From Candidatus Saccharibacteria bacterium RIFCSPHIGHO2_12_FULL_41_12 (GTDB taxonomy: Bacteria; Patescibacteriota; Saccharimonadia; Saccharimonadales; 2-12-FULL-41-12), in contig MGCQ01000001.1 in NCBI GenBank assembly GCA_001790445.1, forward strand, positions 40,462 to 104,461: a stretch of 64,000 bases of DNA, read 5' to 3'. Of the stretch, positions 7,969 to 38,353 are shown piece by piece (position 1 is the first letter of the stretch; every line of letters begins with the position of its first letter). A program made the translations under genes and the position numbers. The notes below the pieces were generated by a model. That model ran no database searches, was not told where the DNA came from, and saw only the letters and a list, made by a program, of their open reading frames with translations.

Positions 7969-8628
7969 ATGGCTATAAATCAACCACAAAACAATCCAGA
8001 TTTACTAGCTGGAGAAAATCCGTACGAAGAAAAAGTAGTAAATATTGATCGTGTTGCCAGAGTCGTCAAAGGTGGTCGTCGCTTTAGGTTCCGCGCACTT
8101 GTTGTAGTGGGAGACAAAAAAGGTCAGGTTGGAATTGGAGTGTCAAAAGGAGCTGATGTAACCGCAGCAGTCACCAAAGCTACTCAAGTCGCAAAAAAGA
8201 ATATTCAAACTGTAACAATAGAAAACGGCACATTTCCTCATGAAGCGCAGGCTAAAGTTAGCGGAGCTAATATACTGATTATGCCTGCAAGTGCCGGTAC
8301 TGGTTTAATCGCCGGTGGTGTTGTTAGAGTAGTGCTTGAGGTTGCTGGTGTTCAAAACGCTCTTAGTAAGTCTCTGGGCTCCGCGAATAAGATTAACGTT
8401 GCCTATGCCACGCTAAAAGCGCTGATGTCTATCAAGCCAAAATCTGAATGGGTTAATCCTCCTCGTAAATTTGTTAAGACACCTGTTCAGGACAAACCAG
8501 AACCTAAGGTTGAGCCAAAACCAGAGATTAAACCTAAAGAAACGCCAAAGCCAAAAAAAGCTGCCACCAAAAACACTAAACCCAAGAAGCCCGCAGCCAA
8601 AAAGTCAACCTCAAAGGATAAAAAATAA
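7969..8628 (+). CDS. rpsE: 30S ribosomal protein S5, with Pro/Lys-rich C-terminal extension
   Basis: [36 protein letters not shown]. Start MAINQP at 7969. Confidence 0.94.
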
Positions 8629-8712
8629 TGAATCACGTTAGAATATTGACGACTTATCATATACTAGACATAAACGACTCTGACGTGGTTGGGAAGAAAG
8701 GATTCTAACGTG

Positions 8713-9183
8713 ATGAAATATTCAGATCTTTCACTGACAAAAAAGAAGTCAAGCAAAAGAGCAGGGCGCGGTATATCTGCTGGTCGGGGTAAAACAGCAG
8801 GTCGTGGGACAAAAGGCCAAGGTTCACGTAAAAGTGGTGGCGTCAAGCCTGGCTTTGAAGGCGGCCAAATGCCTCTGTACAAAAGAATTCCTAAGCTCAG
8901 AGGCTTTAAATCGCACAGACCTAAAGCTCACAACATCAAAACTTCAGTACTTGACGATCTTAAACTAAAAAAAGTTGATAATTTTGTACTTGCTGACAAG
9001 GGTTTGTTGCCCGATGCATACTCGAAAGTTAAATTAATAGCTGACAAAGATATCAAAACAGCGGTAGAAGTTAGCTTGCAAGGGGCCAGCACATCAGCAG
9101 CCGCGAAGCTCGAAAAAGCAGGCGGATCGTTTATAAAAATTCCTCAAAACCTGCGACCAAAAACATCAAATAAATCTAAATAA
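8713..9183 (+). CDS. rplO: 50S ribosomal protein L15
   Basis: GRGISAGRGKTAGRGTKGQGSR motif. It follows rpsE directly, with no rpmD between them. Confidence 0.92.
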   Translation: MKYSDLSLTKKKSSKRAGRGISAGRGKTAGRGTKGQGSRKSGGVKPGFEGGQMPLYKRIPKLRGFKSHRPKAHNIKTSVLDDLKLKKVDNFVLADKGLLPDAYSKVKLIADKDIKTAVEVSLQGASTSAAAKLEKAGGSFIKIPQNLRPKTSNKSK

Positions 9184-9186
9184 TAT

Positions 9187-9215
9187 TTGGACTAATATAC
9201 AAATAGTGATATAGT
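9187..9215 (+). promoter_or_regulatory. Putative sigma70-type promoter for the 9244 ORF
   Basis: TTGGAC (9187-9192), 17 nt, TATAGT (9210-9215). Confidence 0.45.
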
Positions 9216-9243
9216 ATGTCAATATATTATTGAAGGATTTAAA

Positions 9244-9585
9244 ATGAGTGAAAAAAGAATACGCGTGACAGAAGTTTCCTTTGACATTTTAGACATGTTA
9301 CTAAGAGGCAGAGATGATAAAAGCTTAAGTGAACTGGGCGCAGAAGTTTTTATTGTGGATGATCTGGAAGATGCATTTTTTTTGCCGAGAGGTGATGATA
9401 GAAGTGATTTAAGTTTGTTCTACAGCTGGTTTAACAAGCGAACAAACGGAGATACCGCATGGTTCGATCAGATTGCCACCCACCCCATACAATACGCATT
9501 TTCAGACTACGGACGAGAAGTTCTGGAACGATTCATGAAAAAAGACGCTCGGTTGCTAGGTGCTCAAGCCCTTGAAGCAGCATAA
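9244..9585 (+). CDS. Hypothetical acidic protein (113 aa) inserted between rplO and secY
   Basis: Only long ORF in the gap; AAGGA 8 nt upstream; no recognisable motif. Confidence 0.55.
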   Translation: MSEKRIRVTEVSFDILDMLLRGRDDKSLSELGAEVFIVDDLEDAFFLPRGDDRSDLSLFYSWFNKRTNGDTAWFDQIATHPIQYAFSDYGREVLERFMKKDARLLGAQALEAA

Positions 9586-30651: not shown

Positions 30652-31080
30652 ATGGCAGAAAAAAAGATCAAAGCGAATTTAAAAATGAAAATTCCAGCCG
30701 GCAAAGCTAGCGCAGGGCCACCTGTTGGTTCGACCCTCGGTCAATATGGCGTTAGCATGATGGATTTTGTTAATCCATTTAATGAAGCCACTCGCGACAT
30801 GGGCAATGTTACGGTTACGGCGCATATTACGGTTTACGAAGACAGAAGCATGAAATTCCGTGTTGTGGGAGCCCCAACAGACGACTTAATTCGGGCAAAG
30901 TTGGGCATTGCTAAAGGATCTGGCAAACCAAACACAGAGAAACTGGAACAAAAGCTATCGCAGACCGACCTGAAATCTATTGCAGAAGATAAGGCCCAAG
31001 ATATGAACACCGACGACATTGAATCAATAAAGAAAATGGTTGCTGGCACAGCCAGAAGCATGGGAATCGAGGTACAGTAA
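30652..31080 (+). CDS. rplK: 50S ribosomal protein L11
   Basis: IPAGKASAGPPVGSTLGQYGV motif. Confidence 0.95.
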   Translation: MAEKKIKANLKMKIPAGKASAGPPVGSTLGQYGVSMMDFVNPFNEATRDMGNVTVTAHITVYEDRSMKFRVVGAPTDDLIRAKLGIAKGSGKPNTEKLEQKLSQTDLKSIAEDKAQDMNTDDIESIKKMVAGTARSMGIEVQ

Positions 31081-31388
31081 TGGCAGTTGTAAGTGGCATG
31101 CCGTCAGATCGCAAAGGGTTTGAAAGAAACGCAGGATTTAATACATTTGCCAAGAATATTAGAGCTGCAGCGAACAGAAGTGGTCTGCCCTTAAGAGATT
31201 CAAGTTTGTCGCGGGAAACACCAGCTAACGGGCAATACATACCCAAAAGTGTGCATGAACTCGCAGAACTAGCTACGCAAGCTATTGTTGAGAATAATGA
31301 TCGATATCGAGGTTTATCGGCTAGCGCAAGAGCCTTACAGGTGGCAGAAGACGCTGCTAATGCATTTACGAATCAGGAAGCCAAATAA
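31080..31388 (+). CDS. Hypothetical protein (102 aa) inserted between rplK and rplA
   Basis: TAATG start/stop overlap with rplK. No recognisable motif. Confidence 0.5.
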   Translation: MAVVSGMPSDRKGFERNAGFNTFAKNIRAAANRSGLPLRDSSLSRETPANGQYIPKSVHELAELATQAIVENNDRYRGLSASARALQVAEDAANAFTNQEAK

Positions 31389-31414
31389 CAAAGTAAACTT
31401 ATTAAATTAATATT

Positions 31415-31450
31415 GTGGGAGTCCCGCCAGAAGCGCGACGCTTGGACCAC
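31415..31450 (+). promoter_or_regulatory. Possible L1-binding mRNA mimic upstream of rplA
   Basis: GUGG...CCAC-closed structure containing GGGAG and GGAC, immediately 5' of the AAGGAGG SD of rplA. Confidence 0.3.
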
Positions 31451-31463
31451 AAGGAGGAACAAA

Positions 31464-32477
31464 ATGGCAAAAACTAAATCAGAGCTACTTCAAGAAGCAA
31501 AAATGCTTGATTTGGATGTAACTACCAAAAATACAGTTGCAGAAATATCTGCAGCAATTAAATCAGTAGCAAGTAGCAAGCAAAAAGTAGCAAGCGGGGA
31601 AGGGTTGGAAGTTAAAGATACCCAAGAAGTTATTGCTGATGATAACGGACCAGCAAAGGCTGGCAAAAGAAGCGCTAAAGCTATCGCCCAAACAGAAGAA
31701 AAAAGAGCCAAAGAGGAACGAAAAGCCTCTGGCGAAGCTCAGGATACACCAAAGCCTAAGACAATTGTCACACCTACTCGCTCAAGGCTAGAAAGAAGAG
31801 GAAAAGCCTACAAAGAAGCTTCTAAACTTATCGAAAAGGACAAAGAGTACACAATTAAGGAAGCAATGTCTATATTGGTCTCAACGTCTGGCAAGAAATT
31901 TGACTCGACAGCAGAATTACACACACGTCTAGGTGTTAACCCTAAGCATGCCGACCAAAACATTCGCGATAGCATTGTTTTACCAGAGGGTACTGGCAAA
32001 AAACTCAAAGTAGCTGTCTTTGCTGATGAACAAACCGTTGCCAAAGCTGGTAAAATAGAGGCTTTTGCAGTAGGCGAAGAAGTCATAATGAATCTGTTAA
32101 CTAAAGGCGAGATTGAATTCGACATTTTGATAGCTACACCAAATATGATGCAAAAATTAGCTAAATTTGCTAAATTACTTGGTCCTAAAGGCCTTATGCC
32201 AAACCCAAAGAGTGGGACTGTGACTAACGATATTGCAAAAGCCACGTCTGAAGCAAATGCTGGACGCGTGGAATACAGAGTTGATTCATCTGGTATTGTT
32301 CATATAGGTTTTGGAAAAATTAGTTTTGGTGAGTCAAAATTAACAAATAATCTTACGACACTGCTGACTAGTATCAAAAATAACAAGCCGTCTAGCGTAA
32401 AAGGTATTTACATAAAATCCATATATTTGACCACGACAATGGGCCCATCAATCAAAATATCATTGTCAGAGATTTAG
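31464..32477 (+). CDS. rplA: 50S ribosomal protein L1, with about 110-aa N-terminal extension
   Basis: The C-terminal ~230 aa is L1-like (LGPKGLMPNPKSGTV). ATG 31464 follows AAGGAGG. Confidence 0.9.
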   Translation: MAKTKSELLQEAKMLDLDVTTKNTVAEISAAIKSVASSKQKVASGEGLEVKDTQEVIADDNGPAKAGKRSAKAIAQTEEKRAKEERKASGEAQDTPKPKTIVTPTRSRLERRGKAYKEASKLIEKDKEYTIKEAMSILVSTSGKKFDSTAELHTRLGVNPKHADQNIRDSIVLPEGTGKKLKVAVFADEQTVAKAGKIEAFAVGEEVIMNLLTKGEIEFDILIATPNMMQKLAKFAKLLGPKGLMPNPKSGTVTNDIAKATSEANAGRVEYRVDSSGIVHIGFGKISFGESKLTNNLTTLLTSIKNNKPSSVKGIYIKSIYLTTTMGPSIKISLSEI

Positions 32478-32557: not shown

Positions 32558-32608
32558 ATGACTAAAAACAACGTTTTGCAGGTGGAGACCTTGTCCCATG
32601 AGCACTAG
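32558..32608 (+). CDS. Possible 16-codon upstream ORF (MTKNNVLQVETLSHEH)
   Basis: AGGAG lies 7 nt upstream. The stop overlaps the tmk start by 11 nt. Confidence 0.2.
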   Translation: MTKNNVLQVETLSHEH

Positions 32609-34913
32609 TAGAAGCGGATTGTTTGTAGTTATCGAAGGAACTGATGGCTCCGGCAAGGGGACACAGTTTGAACTTCTTGAAAAACATCTTGCTAGGCAAG
32701 GTTATGACTATGAGCAATTCGATTTTCCTCGATATGACCACGAATCCAGTTATTACGTTAGACAATATTTAAACGGCACATACGGCGGCGTAGACGATGT
32801 TAGTCCATATACTGCGTCACTTTTTTATGCACTTGATCGTTACGATGCGAAAGAACAAATACAAACTGCTCTAGACGCAGGCAAAATTGTCATAGCTAAC
32901 CGTTACGTTGGGTCAAATATGGCTCATCAAGGCACAAAATTTGACACAAGAGCAGAAAGAAGAGGATATTTTGTTTGGTTAGACAGTTTAGAGCACACAA
33001 TGCTCGGCATACCTCGTCCTGACCTCTCTATTGTGCTAAATATGCCGGCTGAGATAGCTCAACAACTCGTAGATAACAAAGAAACTCGCCAATATACAGA
33101 CAAAAAAAGAGATATCCATGAAGCGGACCTCGAACATTTAAAAAAATCAGCTGAGGTTTACGAGGACATGTGCAAATTGTTCCCGAAAGATTTTCAAACG
33201 ATTGAATGCGTGAGAGGTAACAAAGTTATAGCTAGAGAAAAAATACAAAAATTAATTTGGGAGACAATTCTTCCTCTGATGCCGTCCAAAAGCCAAAATA
33301 AACAGAATAAGCCCACCAGACAAAATGAAAATGTCTATCTTGACAAAACATCTAAAAATACATCCATTACAAAAGAGGGTAGGCAATTTCTTGAACAGGC
33401 AGTCACCAACCCGGATGGGCAAGTTTATGGATTTTATGACAAGCTCTCCCCGATAACTATTGCTGCTGCTATGGCGCGTCTGAGCAGACGAGCTGATGAT
33501 ATGCGAATCACCATACTTGACGAGTTCACATCGATCAACGGCAATGATGAAACCCTACTTAAAAAAGTAATCACTGCGTATGGTGATGACTCTGTGCAAC
33601 AACTCGTGGGTCAATACATTGTTGTTGAGGACGCCAGCAATTTACTCACTAAAAAACTTGAGTGGGGTCGCCTGGCTGCATATCTAGAACAATCAACAAG
33701 GTATATTTATTTTGACCAGAAAGACAAAAACGATAAATTTCGATATTATACGCCCGACAATCTTGATGCTGGATCAAAAGAATTTTACAACGAGATTATG
33801 GATCAAATATTTTCGATCTATTCTGATATGGCAAAAAATTTGACTCAGTATGTCCGGAATAATTCGAAGGTTCCAAAGGAAGAACGTGATATATCTTGGA
33901 AGGGTGCAACTAGAGCACAGGCTTGTGATGCGATTAGAGCTACACTGCCAGTCGCCACTAAGGCAACTGTTGGTATATTCGCGTCTGGACAGGCACTAGA
34001 AAGCCTAATACTACATTTAATGAGCGATGATTCACATGAAGCAAGGCAGGTTGGGCAAATGATTCTCGGTGAAGCCAGAAAAACTATTCCTGCGTTTTTA
34101 CAGCGAGCTGATCTCCCAGACAGAGGAGGAGCGTTTGTTGCGTACAGACAAGAGACAGCAGAAGATGTTAAAAAAGCTGCCAAAAAATATCTTAAAAGCA
34201 CACACTCAAAAGACGTTGAACCAGTTAAATTAGTTGGATTTTGGCCGAAAAATGAACTTGATCTTGTGAGCACTATGCTTTATGAGCACAGTGGTCTATC
34301 TTTGACAGAAATACAAAAAAACGTTGATAAACTTTCTTACGATCAAAAGAAAAATATTTTTGATAGCTACGTGGGAGAACGACAGAACCGACGACATAAA
34401 CCCGGAAGAGCCTTAGAGACCGCTCACTACAGCTGGGACCTTGTCTGTGATTATGGAGCGTTTCGTGATCTACAGAGACACAGAATGGTTGATGACTTAG
34501 CTTGGCAAGAGTTAAGCCCTAGATTTGGCTATGATATACCAAAACTCGTTGAACAAGCAGGACTGGCTGACAAGTTTGAGCAATGCTTTGATTTAAGCTT
34601 GAAGCTGTATAGCTACTTACAGGCTGAAGGTTATGACAACGAAGCACAATATGCGGTTTTGCTCGGTCATAAAATGCGCTGGAAAGTGACATTTAACGCT
34701 CGTCAGGCGTTCCACTTGATGGAACTACGCACTACTCCTCAAGGACATCCATCGTATCGTAAACTGACTAAACAAATGTTTGACAAACTAGCAGAAGTCC
34801 ACCCGCTCATTGCAAAGTCAATGATATTCGTCAATAAAGATGAAGATCCAGAACTTAATAGATTAGCAGCAGAGCGTTATGCACAGTGGAAGTTGAAGCA
34901 ACTCGATAAATAA
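32598..34913 (+). CDS. Fusion protein: thymidylate kinase (N-terminal) plus tandem ThyX-like (Thy1-family) domains
   Basis: N-terminus FVVIEGTDGSGKGTQ (Tmk P-loop). C-terminus has GAFRDLQRHRM...ELSPRF (ThyX RHR motif) and an earlier degenerate copy WGRLAAYLEQSTRY. Confidence 0.8.
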   Translation: MSTSRSGLFVVIEGTDGSGKGTQFELLEKHLARQGYDYEQFDFPRYDHESSYYVRQYLNGTYGGVDDVSPYTASLFYALDRYDAKEQIQTALDAGKIVIANRYVGSNMAHQGTKFDTRAERRGYFVWLDSLEHTMLGIPRPDLSIVLNMPAEIAQQLVDNKETRQYTDKKRDIHEADLEHLKKSAEVYEDMCKLFPKDFQTIECVRGNKVIAREKIQKLIWETILPLMPSKSQNKQNKPTRQNENVYLDKTSKNTSITKEGRQFLEQAVTNPDGQVYGFYDKLSPITIAAAMARLSRRADDMRITILDEFTSINGNDETLLKKVITAYGDDSVQQLVGQYIVVEDASNLLTKKLEWGRLAAYLEQSTRYIYFDQKDKNDKFRYYTPDNLDAGSKEFYNEIMDQIFSIYSDMAKNLTQYVRNNSKVPKEERDISWKGATRAQACDAIRATLPVATKATVGIFASGQALESLILHLMSDDSHEARQVGQMILGEARKTIPAFLQRADLPDRGGAFVAYRQETAEDVKKAAKKYLKSTHSKDVEPVKLVGFWPKNELDLVSTMLYEHSGLSLTEIQKNVDKLSYDQKKNIFDSYVGERQNRRHKPGRALETAHYSWDLVCDYGAFRDLQRHRMVDDLAWQELSPRFGYDIPKLVEQAGLADKFEQCFDLSLKLYSYLQAEGYDNEAQYAVLLGHKMRWKVTFNARQAFHLMELRTTPQGHPSYRKLTKQMFDKLAEVHPLIAKSMIFVNKDEDPELNRLAAERYAQWKLKQLDK

Positions 34914-34987: not shown

Positions 34988-35590
34988 ATGAATAACACGG
35001 TTTTCGGGACGGGTTCCAACCTAGCAATGAGAAACATCTCCAATTTGGATACCCTCAAAAAAATGGTTCAGAAATGGAAAGATGAGGGCAGCAAAATCGT
35101 TTTAGTATCGGGCTCTTGGGATTTGATTCATGAGGGACATGCTCTGTACCTAGAAGTGGCAAAATCTTACGGCGATATACTGGTTGTGGGCGTTGATAGT
35201 GACAAAAAGGTTAAAAGACGCAAAGGTCCCAGGCGTCCAATCGTACCACAACAAGAGAGGCTGAGAATGTTATCACACCTTAGGTCTGTAGATGTAGTTA
35301 CACTTAAAGAAGACACCGCTCCTAAGTGGTCACTGATAAAGGCTATTAAACCAGATGTGCTTGTTGCTACAAAAAGCACATACTCTAAAAAAGAAATTGA
35401 CGAACTTGAAAAAAAGTATTGCAAAAAAGTACTGGTTCACGAAAGAATGGCCACCACAAGCACAAGTGCTCGTCTGAGACTTGTCCAAATCGATCTTGCC
35501 AACAAGCTATCTCAGAAACTATCTGAAAAGATTCCTTCTATGATAGACGAGGTTATTGCTCAAGCGGTAAAGCCCGAAAAGGGGAAATAG
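34988..35590 (+). CDS. Cytidylyltransferase-like nucleotidyltransferase (RfaE domain II-like)
   Basis: SGSWDLIHEGHALYLEVAK...VVGVDSDKKVKRRKGPRRPIV (HxGH family). Confidence 0.75.
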   Translation: MNNTVFGTGSNLAMRNISNLDTLKKMVQKWKDEGSKIVLVSGSWDLIHEGHALYLEVAKSYGDILVVGVDSDKKVKRRKGPRRPIVPQQERLRMLSHLRSVDVVTLKEDTAPKWSLIKAIKPDVLVATKSTYSKKEIDELEKKYCKKVLVHERMATTSTSARLRLVQIDLANKLSQKLSEKIPSMIDEVIAQAVKPEKGK

Positions 35591-35596
35591 CCTTAT

Positions 35597-36484
35597 ATGC
35601 CCAAAAAAATTATCGTTGCATATCTGCCTGTTTTGCACTCTGGCTATATAAACTTTTTCAAGCAGAACCCCGATTGTTCAACTTTATATATTATTGGTCC
35701 GGATATTATTGATAATTACCGACCTATTCAAAAAGACGTGCGAGCGTTGACACCAGAAATAGCAAAGGAAGCAATATCAAGTTTAAATTTGTTTGACGAG
35801 ATTAAAATAGTAGACACAGACGATATCAAAAAGCTCAACGACACTTCCACAGCAATAGTTATGCCTGACGAAGATATTTGCCAAGAACTAGCCCAAAAAT
35901 ACTTAGACCGCGCAAATGTCACGTTTTCACCAAGCTTTTTGCGCTGGGATCGAGCACGCAGTAATGCTCAAGATCCTATTATTGCTGACCTAGAAATTTC
36001 TGAAGACAAATTAGACAAAGAAATATTAAACAAAGCATACACAGAAGCCATAAAAAGCTCAGATATCTGGCGGAGAGTTGGAGCGTTAATTGCGAAAAAT
36101 GGCCGAATAACCGCCTCTGCGCACAACCAAGCAACCCCAAATGAACATTCTTCCGTCATAATGGGGGACCCACGCAACAACTACAATAAGGGAGTTGGTA
36201 TAGAGCAATCAATATTTATACATGCAGAATCAAAACTCATAGCCCAGGCTGCAAAAATGGGCGTAAGTCTTAATGGTACAGACATGTATGTCACAACTTT
36301 TCCTTGTCCAGTTTGCGCCAAGCTCATTGCATTTAGCGGGATTAGTAGGCTGTTTTTCGCAGAAGGTTACGGTATGCTCGATGGAGCTGAAACACTCAAA
36401 ATACATGGTGTAAAGTTAATCAAGGTTAATGTTAAACCAAAAGTTGATGATCCGAGTATCCTTATTCCATATCCAGAAAAATAG
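35597..36484 (+). CDS. dCMP/cytidylate deaminase with about 150-aa N-terminal extra domain
   Basis: HAESKLI...PCPVCAKLI zinc-binding deaminase motifs. Confidence 0.82.
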   Translation: MPKKIIVAYLPVLHSGYINFFKQNPDCSTLYIIGPDIIDNYRPIQKDVRALTPEIAKEAISSLNLFDEIKIVDTDDIKKLNDTSTAIVMPDEDICQELAQKYLDRANVTFSPSFLRWDRARSNAQDPIIADLEISEDKLDKEILNKAYTEAIKSSDIWRRVGALIAKNGRITASAHNQATPNEHSSVIMGDPRNNYNKGVGIEQSIFIHAESKLIAQAAKMGVSLNGTDMYVTTFPCPVCAKLIAFSGISRLFFAEGYGMLDGAETLKIHGVKLIKVNVKPKVDDPSILIPYPEK

Positions 36485-36497
36485 CACAACTTAGCTT

Positions 36498-36953
36498 TTA
36501 GATATTATCGGGCACAGAACTCATTTTGAATCGTACTTTATTGTGATTTTTGGGATCACTAAAATCGCCAACTACTACATGAGCATGTAGATGCTCAACA
36601 CTGCCACCATTATAAAACATATCGCCAACTCTCATCCCTAGTGCAAAACTATTGAGATCAAATTGTTTCTCTATCCTGGCCAGAACCTCCATAAACTCTG
36701 CTCGCGACTCCTTGGTTATTTCTTTCATACTGCGTGCATGCTCACGTAAAATAATCAGTAGGTGAGTGGTTGTGTGCTTATACGGATAGTCATTTTTCGT
36801 TACAATCCAGTGTTTTGTCTCAAACTCAATCGGATTGTCATGGTGCTCAATAAAATATTCTGGACAAAACGCACAAACGCCTGAGTCTGTTAATTTTTTC
36901 ATTTTCTCTATCTGCTTCTCATGTCTGCCAGCAGAAATATTGTACTTGTTCAT
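36498..36953 (-). CDS. HIT-family nucleotide hydrolase/transferase
   Basis: Histidine triad HLHAHVV near the C-terminus. Confidence 0.8.
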   Translation of the reverse strand: MNKYNISAGRHEKQIEKMKKLTDSGVCAFCPEYFIEHHDNPIEFETKHWIVTKNDYPYKHTTTHLLIILREHARSMKEITKESRAEFMEVLARIEKQFDLNSFALGMRVGDMFYNGGSVEHLHAHVVVGDFSDPKNHNKVRFKMSSVPDNI

Positions 36954-37453
36954 TGTCTCTCTCTTTCATATGTGACGTAGCAATAGTCAAACTCATTTCT
37001 GTCGTCTCTTGGGCGGGGTTCTCTGTCAATTTCTACCCAACTTTTATCATCAATAAAATCTGGAAAGTGCGCGTCACCTTCTAATTTTGCCTCAACTTCT
37101 GTGGCATATATCTTGTCCGTTTGACTCAAAAATGCTTCATAAATCTGCGCACCGCCGATAATAAAATTTTCGTCCTCAGGTGACAACATTTGCATTACTT
37201 GGCTAACGCTGTGTGCAATTTCTATGCCATCTGCAGAAAAGTTCACATCCCTGGTCAAAATAATATTGCGTCTATTGGGCAGAGGTTTGCCGATACTTGC
37301 CACGATGGAGTCGAATGTAGTCCGCCCCATAATAACTGGATGCCCAGTGGTCAACTCTCTAAATCTTTTTAAATCAGCCGGTAAAGACCACGGCAGTTCA
37401 TTCTTATTGCCGATTACGCGGTTTTTGGTCATAGCGACGATAATACTTATCAT
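36950..37453 (-). CDS. folA: Dihydrofolate reductase
   Basis: ISIIVAMTKNRVIGNKNELPWSLPADLKRFRELTTGHPVIMGRTTFDSI. Confidence 0.93.
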   Translation of the reverse strand: MISIIVAMTKNRVIGNKNELPWSLPADLKRFRELTTGHPVIMGRTTFDSIVASIGKPLPNRRNIILTRDVNFSADGIEIAHSVSQVMQMLSPEDENFIIGGAQIYEAFLSQTDKIYATEVEAKLEGDAHFPDFIDDKSWVEIDREPRPRDDRNEFDYCYVTYERERQ

Positions 37454-37456
37454 ATC

Positions 37457-38353
37457 TCAGGCCGCTACGGGGATACCCTTTATTGATGGATGCGGGTCAT
37501 AATCACTTAGCTCAAAATGTTCACCACGAAAATCATGGATATCTGTCACTTTTTTGCCTTCCTCAGTCAAATGCACAGTGGGGAATGGGCGTGATTTACG
37601 TGCAATAACTTCGTTAAGATATTCGATTTGATCCTCGTAAATATGTGCGTCAGAAATAGTATGAACATACTGACGCGCCTCATAGCCAGTCAAATGCTCT
37701 AATATAAGTGCCAAGGCTGCATATTGGATCATATTGGATGGAACGCCGATTGGCACGTCACCTGAGCGTTGAAACATATGAAGATAAAGCCCCCCGTCGA
37801 TAATGCGTACGTGTATCCAGCCATGACAAGGCGCCAAGGTTACTTTTTGCTGTTTACCTTTACCACGAACAATATATTGCGGAATCCAGGGAGTAACGAA
37901 ATGCGTTCTAAGTTCTGGTAATTCTTTAATTTGTTCGACTAGATGCTTAAACTGATCAAACGAGCCACCATCTGCAGTCGGGAAGTCATGAAAAGCTGCA
38001 CCGTAAGATCCTGGACCAATATCGCCTGGCTGGAGACCACGTTTTTGGCTTTTTGCTGCGGTTGTCCATTGGTCCCACCACATAACGCCGTATTTTGCTA
38101 ATCCATCGCGGGTTCTCTCTCCATTAATAAATGCACATAGCTCGTCAATTGGTTTACGCCAAAAGCCAGCCACACTACGTTCTGTAATGACAGGGAAGCC
38201 GTTACTCAGATCAAAGTGCATTTGTTGGCCAATCAATGTTTTGGCTGCAGGACCTTGCCTTGTGGGCGAGAACACTCCATTTTCTAGTATATTTTTGAGC
38301 ATATCTTGATACTGATGGTCAGGGCGACGTTCTGCAACCGGTAAATATTTCAT
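37457..38353 (-). CDS. thyA: Thymidylate synthase ThyA family (divergent)
   Basis: LAPCH catalytic Cys, FQRSGDV, SNMIQYA (Asn retained), DAHIY, C-terminus DPHPSIKGIPVAA. Lies upstream of folA. Confidence 0.85.
   Translation of the reverse strand: MKYLPVAERRPDHQYQDMLKNILENGVFSPTRQGPAAKTLIGQQMHFDLSNGFPVITERSVAGFWRKPIDELCAFINGERTRDGLAKYGVMWWDQWTTAAKSQKRGLQPGDIGPGSYGAAFHDFPTADGGSFDQFKHLVEQIKELPELRTHFVTPWIPQYIVRGKGKQQKVTLAPCHGWIHVRIIDGGLYLHMFQRSGDVPIGVPSNMIQYAALALILEHLTGYEARQYVHTISDAHIYEDQIEYLNEVIARKSRPFPTVHLTEEGKKVTDIHDFRGEHFELSDYDPHPSIKGIPVAA

Follow-up and report, generated by a model that had tools for sequence, protein, structure and literature searches.

The 64-kb stretch of DNA analysed here (the window), from contig MGCQ01000001.1 of Candidatus Saccharibacteria bacterium RIFCSPHIGHO2_12_FULL_41_12, contains a gene (32598..34913, forward strand) for a single protein of 771 residues in which a thymidylate kinase (Tmk) is joined to two consecutive domains of the flavin-dependent thymidylate synthase ThyX. 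The fusion is a real and conserved gene. Its two ThyX halves have lost complementary sets of active-site residues, and we consider it probable that the protein is a bifunctional enzyme which, with two composite flavin sites and a tethered kinase, converts dUMP via dTMP to dTDP.

The fusion gene and its distribution

The reading frame opens with an ATG, the first in-frame start past a stop codon, and a GGAG sequence lies 10 nt 5' of it; another ATG, at 32558, lies in a different frame. The product has an exact match in the protein collection, GenBank entry OGL31179.1, which is labelled 'hypothetical protein A3F37_02305'. More than 5000 homologs of the fusion protein were found in a search of 5.8 billion proteins. 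The best 120 of these are 765-798 residues long, show 64-77% identity, carry both Pfam domains in every case and are drawn from NCBI, JGI, ENA and Logan assemblies.

Phyletic distribution was examined, as suggested in the initial annotation, by scanning a single genome for each GTDB species. Relatives of the fusion gene occur in at least 596 genomes; as the scan used a 20-sequence alignment and patterns that include FRDLQRHR, this number is biased to intact motifs and cannot gauge the frequency of degenerate forms. Among the best 80 matches, those covering residues ~1-770 are almost all metagenome-assembled genomes (MAGs) of Saccharibacteria/Saccharimonadia, on contigs of up to 950 kb. The gene order rplK-rplA followed by the fusion gene is conserved across the Saccharibacteria genomes scanned. 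Within the clade, mean column identity is 0.78 for Tmk, 0.80 for half 1, 0.82 for half 2 and 0.52 for the linker between kinase and synthase; the kinase and both halves thus appear to be under comparable constraint.

The initial annotation had been aware of no described fusion of this kind. In this it was right as far as publications and experiments are concerned: full-text literature searches, which omit most subscription-journal papers, brought up no description of a Tmk-ThyX fusion. Thousands of database entries, however, already carry it under automatic names, which are 'thymidylate kinase/thymidylate synthase ThyX' at JGI and 'dTMP kinase' or 'FAD-dependent thymidylate synthase' at NCBI. 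The fusion has been detected by annotation pipelines, and the missing part is a published description or experiment.

The tandem ThyX module

The C-terminal region is made up of half 1 (residues 256-520; 33363..34157) and of a connecting helix with half 2 (residues 521-771; 34158..34910), all on the forward strand. Pfam Thy1 (PF02511) matches the whole protein in two stretches with 121.5 bits against a cut-off of 24.8. This search had been proposed together with the claim of two ThyX halves, and each half also passes it alone: half 1 (searched as residues 245-520) with 57.9 bits (1.5e-15), covering profile positions 10-190 of 191, and half 2 (residues 521-771) with 68.5 bits (8.7e-19). With the NCBIfam equivalog TIGR02170 the whole protein scores 55.9 bits, the cut-off being 87.9. 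Further support for the assignment comes from the register with Thermotoga maritima ThyX and from column counts for both halves, and from a profile match to ThyX entries of the PDB for half 2.

An AlphaFold2 (AF2) model of residues 245-771, computed with 79 sequences from two clades, has a pLDDT of 88.1 and a pTM of 0.86. When it was compared with the PDB by Foldseek, the top 50 matches were all ThyX or PolB, with a probability of 1.00 and target-normalised TM scores of 0.60-0.72. They include ThyX from PBCV-1 (4fzb), T. maritima (1o26, 3g4a, 8reo) and T. thermophilus (6j61) as well as PolB (4p5b), mostly at about 0.70; the query-normalised scores are about 0.30 because each PDB target spans one half. 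None of the Foldseek PDB matches is a solved structure in which a single chain has two ThyX domains. By this model the module has the ThyX fold, and the search for another fold of the C-terminal region, an outcome that had been envisaged at the outset, returned solely ThyX and PolB structures. A full-length AF2 model (771 residues, 16 close homologs) was poor (pLDDT 63, pTM 0.36) and was not used for fold assignment.

At the sequence level the module is 17-18% identical to solved ThyX proteins, and phmmer found no real ThyX match for the C-terminal 520 residues in the PDB. A profile of half 2 matched PBCV-1 and Helicobacter pylori ThyX weakly; a profile of half 1 matched 3d01 alone, which we judged spurious. 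Alignment of half 1 with half 2 by hhalign was insignificant (E 0.12), with a short aligned stretch in the expected register.

The residues were placed in register with profiles of each half, built from 45 diverse tandem proteins and aligned to T. maritima ThyX. The T. maritima numbering used here agrees with the residues given in PMC3498832 and PMC11940539. In half 1 the motif WGRLAAYLEQSTRY is present at residues 356-369 (W356-G-R358-LAAYL-E364-Q-S366-T-R368-Y369; 33663..33704, forward strand), as read from the sequence and placed by profile alignment. It corresponds to the canonical RHRxxSxxxxSxRY with WG for RH and Ala for the first Ser, which bears out the degenerate motif noticed earlier in this half; in the T. 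maritima alignment, the half-1 profile RgRlasyLEqSTRY is set against RHRIASYNELSGRY. Six T. maritima residues, R80, E86, S88, R90, Y91 and R147, are kept as R358, E364, S366, R368, Y369 and R447, and the first five of these positions in half 1 are invariant in alignments A1 and A5. N163, R165 and R174 are replaced by S463, Q465 and L474.

In half 2 the motif FRDLQRHRMVDDLAWQELSPRF is found at residues 622-643 (FRDLQ-R627-H628-R629-MVDDLAWQEL-S640-P-R642-F; 34461..34526, forward strand). The initial annotation had described an RHR motif with Asp for the first Ser and a three-residue insertion, and both features are present, the insertion being a gap in the alignment with PBCV-1 ThyX (RHRS---FHFQEFSQRY). 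All three strings quoted at that stage, FVVIEGTDGSGKGTQFELL of the kinase, WGRLAAYLEQSTRY and FRDLQRHRMVDDLAWQELSPRF, were found. T. maritima R78, H79 and R80 are kept as R627, H628 and R629, and the flavin- and uracil-binding set N163, R165, R174 and H178 is kept, in half 2 only, as N700, R702, R711 and H717. The insertion falls into the S/R loop of half 2 (S640, R642), which varies across the wider family, its Arg occurring in 27 of 64 diverse members. A complete RHRxxSxxxxSxR(Y) motif is found within neither domain, as half 2 reads RHRMVD plus three residues and then SPRF; the full motif is obtained by summing both halves.

By this register, half 1 keeps the dUMP loop and the phosphate-binding Arg and has lost the flavin binders, and half 2 shows the reverse. 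The residues retained in both halves are invariant among relatives at 36-77% identity, and 12 of 12 key ThyX positions are invariant in the window protein and 15 relatives at 64-77% identity. In PBCV-1 ThyX, one monomer provides S88/Q89 and another the equivalent of R174 (PMC3498832). The C-terminal 520 residues form a 'fused dimer' of ThyX domains, which probably pairs with a second chain to give the canonical tetramer form. We infer that a dimer of tandem chains rebuilds the ThyX tetramer with two of its four pockets complete, each complete pocket consisting of the flavin and uracil residues of half 2 and the loop and Arg of half 1. The complete sites would be solely composite, two per dimer as against the four of the canonical homotetramer, which lie where three subunits meet. 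The complementary residue loss gives a testable prediction of which subunit provides which active-site residue.

Tandem ThyX proteins are also known without a kinase. When 1.84 billion cluster representatives were searched exhaustively with HMMER, the C-terminal 520 residues had 3474 relatives, of which 686 lie below 1e-30; most of these relatives have 520-560 residues and no kinase. Those that could be named belong to Acidimicrobiia and other Actinomycetota, which are the nearest (about 40% identity over residues 256-765; loci L057-L080, match at ~8001-9570 in each), to the Cyanobacteria Fischerella, Calothrix and Aphanothece, and to the DPANN archaea Micrarchaeota, Aenigmarchaeota and Woesearchaeota. 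At least one Saccharibacteria MAG also has an unfused tandem ThyX (L046). The window module aligns over the full length with the ~520-560-residue representatives at 32-52% identity. All 12 key positions are kept in 86 of the 94 full-length unfused representatives, and at least 10 in all 94. Sequence comparison thus clearly points to the unfused tandem ThyX as the family from which the C-terminal 520 residues directly derive. The resemblance to long ThyX forms that had been noted at first sight is borne out, since unfused proteins of ~530 residues show the same pattern of degeneration.

Most Chloroflexi are reported to have a domain-duplicated ThyX as their sole thymidylate synthase, which 'has not been characterized' (Valas and Bourne 2009, PMC3224940). 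This supports tandem ThyX as a working thymidylate synthase. Beyond this one remark, our literature search found no biochemical or structural study of a tandem ThyX; the family, with its 686 cluster representatives below 1e-30, was flagged as uncharacterised in 2009, and no structure of it has been solved. Among unfused tandem ThyX proteins the nearest are actinobacterial, and the fused kinase, too, most resembles an actinobacterial type, that of Mycobacterium tuberculosis (Mtb). No tmk gene was present as a fusion precursor within 8 kb of the unfused actinobacterial tandem thyX genes. Actinomycetota are the hosts of cultured Saccharibacteria, and genes may have passed between host and epibiont.

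Function of the fusion protein

The kinase domain occupies residues ~7-225 (32616..33272, forward strand). Pfam Thymidylate_kin (PF02223), the second profile search that had been suggested, matches residues 12-203 with 77.8 bits against a cut-off of 27 (1.1e-21). The P-loop string FVVIEGTDGSGKGTQFELL is confirmed at residues 9-27, with the loop G14-T-D-G-S-G-K20-G-T22 read from the sequence at 32637..32663 (forward strand); it aligns with GVDGAGKRT of Mtb TMPK (1g3u) and is invariant in 16 relatives (alignment A1). Residues 9-191 align best to this same structure (1.3e-19), which places D16, K20 and T22 in the P-loop and further aligns F43-P-R-Y46, A78-L-D-R81, R102, N107 and the Mg-site Glu, E175. 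There is no second tmk gene in the 64-kb window. Between kinase and synthase lies a low-complexity linker (residues ~226-255; 33273..33362, forward strand), recognized by its low column identity, by its length variation (27-40 residues across 16 relatives) and by a pLDDT below 50 in the full-length AF2 model.

In the bifunctional enzyme that we favour, the composite ThyX sites would methylate dUMP to dTMP with FAD, NADPH and methylene-tetrahydrofolate, and the N-terminal Mtb-type kinase, held on a flexible linker of 30 residues, would next add a phosphate to the dTMP to give dTDP. Because Tmk usually dimerises, a 1:1 ratio of kinase to synthase sites would be expected. Dimerisation, composite sites and both activities are predicted from sequence, as is a benefit from proximity or channelling, of which the channelling part is speculation.

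Several observations weigh against this assignment. The best NCBIfam match of the kinase is NF005923, with 135 bits against a cut-off of 193, and TIGR00041 gives 76.3 bits against 83.25. The DRY motif reads N101-R-Y103 (32898-32906), and this change from Asp to Asn, at a catalytic-site position that is conserved as a rule, is invariant in 16 relatives. The domain had been called a standard Tmk: a kinase domain with a P-loop it is, but not a standard one, being Mtb-like, below both equivalog cut-offs and with NRY. In half 2, H53 is replaced by P602, Q75 by D624 and R147 by Q684, and the substrate loop carries the three-residue insertion. Which subunit contributes which residue of the composite site is our own assignment from the alignments, and for no tandem ThyX or fusion was a measurement of activity found in the literature. 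A dihydrofolate reductase (DHFR) gene (36950..37453, reverse strand; Pfam DHFR_1 1.2e-59, with matches to the NCBIfam DHFR families) and a gene for the classical thymidylate synthase ThyA (37457..38353, reverse strand; Pfam 3.7e-67, TIGR03284 184.4 bits against a cut-off of 108.35) lie about 2 kb downstream of the fusion, within 3.5 kb of it. ThyA looks intact with its DHFR and would be a second route to dTMP, and ThyX activity is therefore redundant on paper. Finally, most of the ThyX catalytic residues are gone from 16 of 20 full-length cluster representatives with a fused Tmk, which usually keep the kinase P-loop.

The other four of these 20 keep all 12 ThyX positions; the two counts are not a frequency, because representatives at 50% identity over-count fast-evolving sequences. 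The losses mean that the module can persist without catalysis, and by sequence there do appear to be proteins consisting of a kinase and a dead ThyX. Degenerate fusions at 30-47% identity which have lost RHR, R174, the S/R loop and further ThyX catalytic positions are P0144, P0153, P0154, P0160, P0173, P0183, P0220, P0227, P0228 and P0230.

The best-surviving alternative is that the ThyX module of the window protein is itself non-catalytic. ThyA and DHFR would then make all dTMP, and the tandem ThyX would serve as a dimer scaffold or as a sensor of dUMP, FAD or folate. The adjacent, apparently intact ThyA and DHFR agree with this, as do the substituted H53, Q75 and R147 positions of half 2 and the fused representatives that kept the kinase with largely destroyed ThyX positions, which would be pseudo-ThyX scaffolds in sister lineages. 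However, the 12 key positions do not vary in the window protein and its 15 relatives, and the halves are as conserved as the kinase. The changes at H53, Q75 and R147 are common to the unfused family, reported as the sole synthase of most Chloroflexi (PMC3224940), and mycobacteria are known to have ThyA and ThyX together (PMC3352284). We regard a non-catalytic module as unlikely for the window protein.

A changed chemistry or substrate is a good deal less probable still. Here the module would methylate or hydroxymethylate another pyrimidine nucleotide, UMP as in PolB or dCMP, and the kinase would act on the product. The three residues inserted into the half-2 substrate loop and the replaced H53 and Q75 would be in keeping with it, and Foldseek also matched PolB (4p5b), which methylates UMP/dUMP, with a target-normalised TM score of 0.66. 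But PolB scores no better than genuine ThyX; R711, the equivalent of the uracil-recognising R174, and the E/S/R/Y loop of half 1 are strictly kept; the thymine- and sugar-contact positions of the kinase align with Mtb TMPK; and the neighbourhood is one of standard dTMP metabolism.

That tmk and thyX are separate genes brought together by a frameshift in sequencing or assembly can be dismissed with near certainty: the 90% cluster of the window protein has three members, of which two are indeed short fragments from a 2.3-kb contig, but the best 120 of the more than 5000 homologs are full-length, the same unbroken frame occurs in independent NCBI, JGI, ENA and Logan assemblies and in about 50 species-level Saccharibacteria genomes on contigs of up to 950 kb with rplK-rplA synteny kept, and the linker lies at a conserved position between the domains and is variable in sequence.

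A second type of kinase is found on the same module. Type B kinases, with the canonical 'GKYIVIEGPEGVGKTTQ...REPDSQ' (Pfam 6e-26), are joined to ThyX modules that share about 65% identity with that of the window, and are only 25% identical to the Mtb-like type A kinase of the window protein. Sequence comparison identified type B fusions at L052:2045-4354, L073:7992-10319, L040:7122-9548, L023:7992-10286 and L025:7998-10250. Two kinase types on ThyX modules of ~65% identity indicate two independent fusions or a domain replacement within Saccharibacteria, and two unrelated kinase types on the same module argue that linking both activities was itself selected. This leads to a wider reading, which we put forward tentatively and which is possible rather than probable: the bifunctional enzyme would be an obligate dimer with two composite ThyX and two kinase sites 1:1 as a dUMP-to-dTDP module, its coupling would have been selected, as the two kinase types suggest, and in sister lineages the ThyX part would have decayed repeatedly to a pseudoenzyme scaffold. 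If true, there would be a natural series from bifunctional enzyme to kinase plus dead domain within one phylum of epibionts with reduced genomes.

Genomic neighbourhood and related systems

Downstream of the fusion, a protein of 295 residues (35597..36484, forward strand) contains a dCMP deaminase domain at residues 140-255 (PF00383, 2.9e-16), which by its assignment would supply dUMP. Its first ~135 residues have no Pfam match and are regarded as an add-on, because the corresponding deaminase at locus L081 has 165 residues. This locus harbours the closest relative of the fusion (77% identity), in the order rplA, dCTP deaminase-dUTPase, DHFR, ThyA, dCMP deaminase and Tmk-ThyX2, the four genes from the dCTP deaminase-dUTPase to the dCMP deaminase being a block (L081:5421-7968) inserted between rplA and the fusion gene. 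In this sub-lineage the fusion is thus embedded in a thymidylate gene cluster, alongside the ThyA/DHFR route. ThyA or DHFR lies within 8 kb in only three of ~56 Saccharibacteria scan loci, a count that refers to the 8-kb flanks.

Two further genes are wedged into the thymidylate gene cluster of the window, one for a cytidylyltransferase-like protein (34988..35590, forward strand; best NCBIfam match RfaE domain II adenylyltransferase, below its cut-off) and one for a HIT-family protein (36498..36953, reverse strand). Upstream, a 102-residue open reading frame without Pfam match (31080..31388, forward strand) lies between rplK and rplA, and L081 has a 91-residue one at the same place. The gene for ribosomal protein L1 (rplA; 31413..32477, forward strand) encodes 354 residues when called from the first TTG in frame, and its Pfam L1 domain does not start before residue 156. 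As the L1 gene of L081 is also long as called (328 residues), the sequences suggest a long N-terminal extension on L1.

Cells depend on thymidylate synthesis, an essential process, and ThyX is a target for antibacterials. If active, the protein would be the first fusion of a synthase with a kinase to be described in the dTMP branch and a hallmark enzyme of Saccharibacteria, which are ultrasmall epibionts reliant on salvaged nucleotides. The adjacent intact ThyA and DHFR, the relatives with degenerate ThyX and the two kinase types pose an evolutionary question on redundancy and pseudoenzyme formation. The known workings of ThyX and Tmk are unchanged by this; the value lies in the prediction of composite sites and in the evolutionary series, not in new chemistry.

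Among known systems, the long ThyX proteins (~520-560 residues) of Actinomycetota, Cyanobacteria, DPANN and Chloroflexi are similar to the C-terminal module, with about 40% identity and complementary degeneration of the halves in 86 of 94, but have no kinase domain. Canonical ThyX/FDTS (T. maritima TM0449, 1o26; PBCV-1 A674R, 2cfa/4fzb) shares with each half the Pfam family and the predicted fold, and the two halves of the fusion together hold its full set of flavin- and dUMP-binding residues. In contrast to it, the fusion has two ThyX domains per chain, neither with the full residue set, and an attached kinase; half 2 has the three-residue insertion in the motif and Pro for H53, and the score with TIGR02170 is 55.9 bits as against 87.9. 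The kinase resembles Mtb TMPK (1g3u, NF005923) in the P-loop Asp, FPRY, ALDR, the catalytic Arg, N100 and the Mg-site Glu. It differs in having GK-G-T where the Mtb P-loop has GK-R-T, NRY for DRY and His110 for Mtb Y103, in scoring 135 bits, under the 193-bit cut-off of NF005923, and in being joined to ThyX.

PolB of polyoxin biosynthesis (4p5b) has the ThyX fold and is a top Foldseek match, but is a single-domain protein from a natural-product gene cluster with another substrate, and nothing points the fusion to that role. The bifunctional DHFR-TS of protozoa and plants is a dimer with two consecutive thymidylate enzymes on one chain and is the classical case of proposed substrate channelling. 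The fusion likewise has consecutive thymidylate enzymes on one chain, whereas folds and reaction pair are unrelated, ThyA and DHFR in the one and synthase and kinase in the other.

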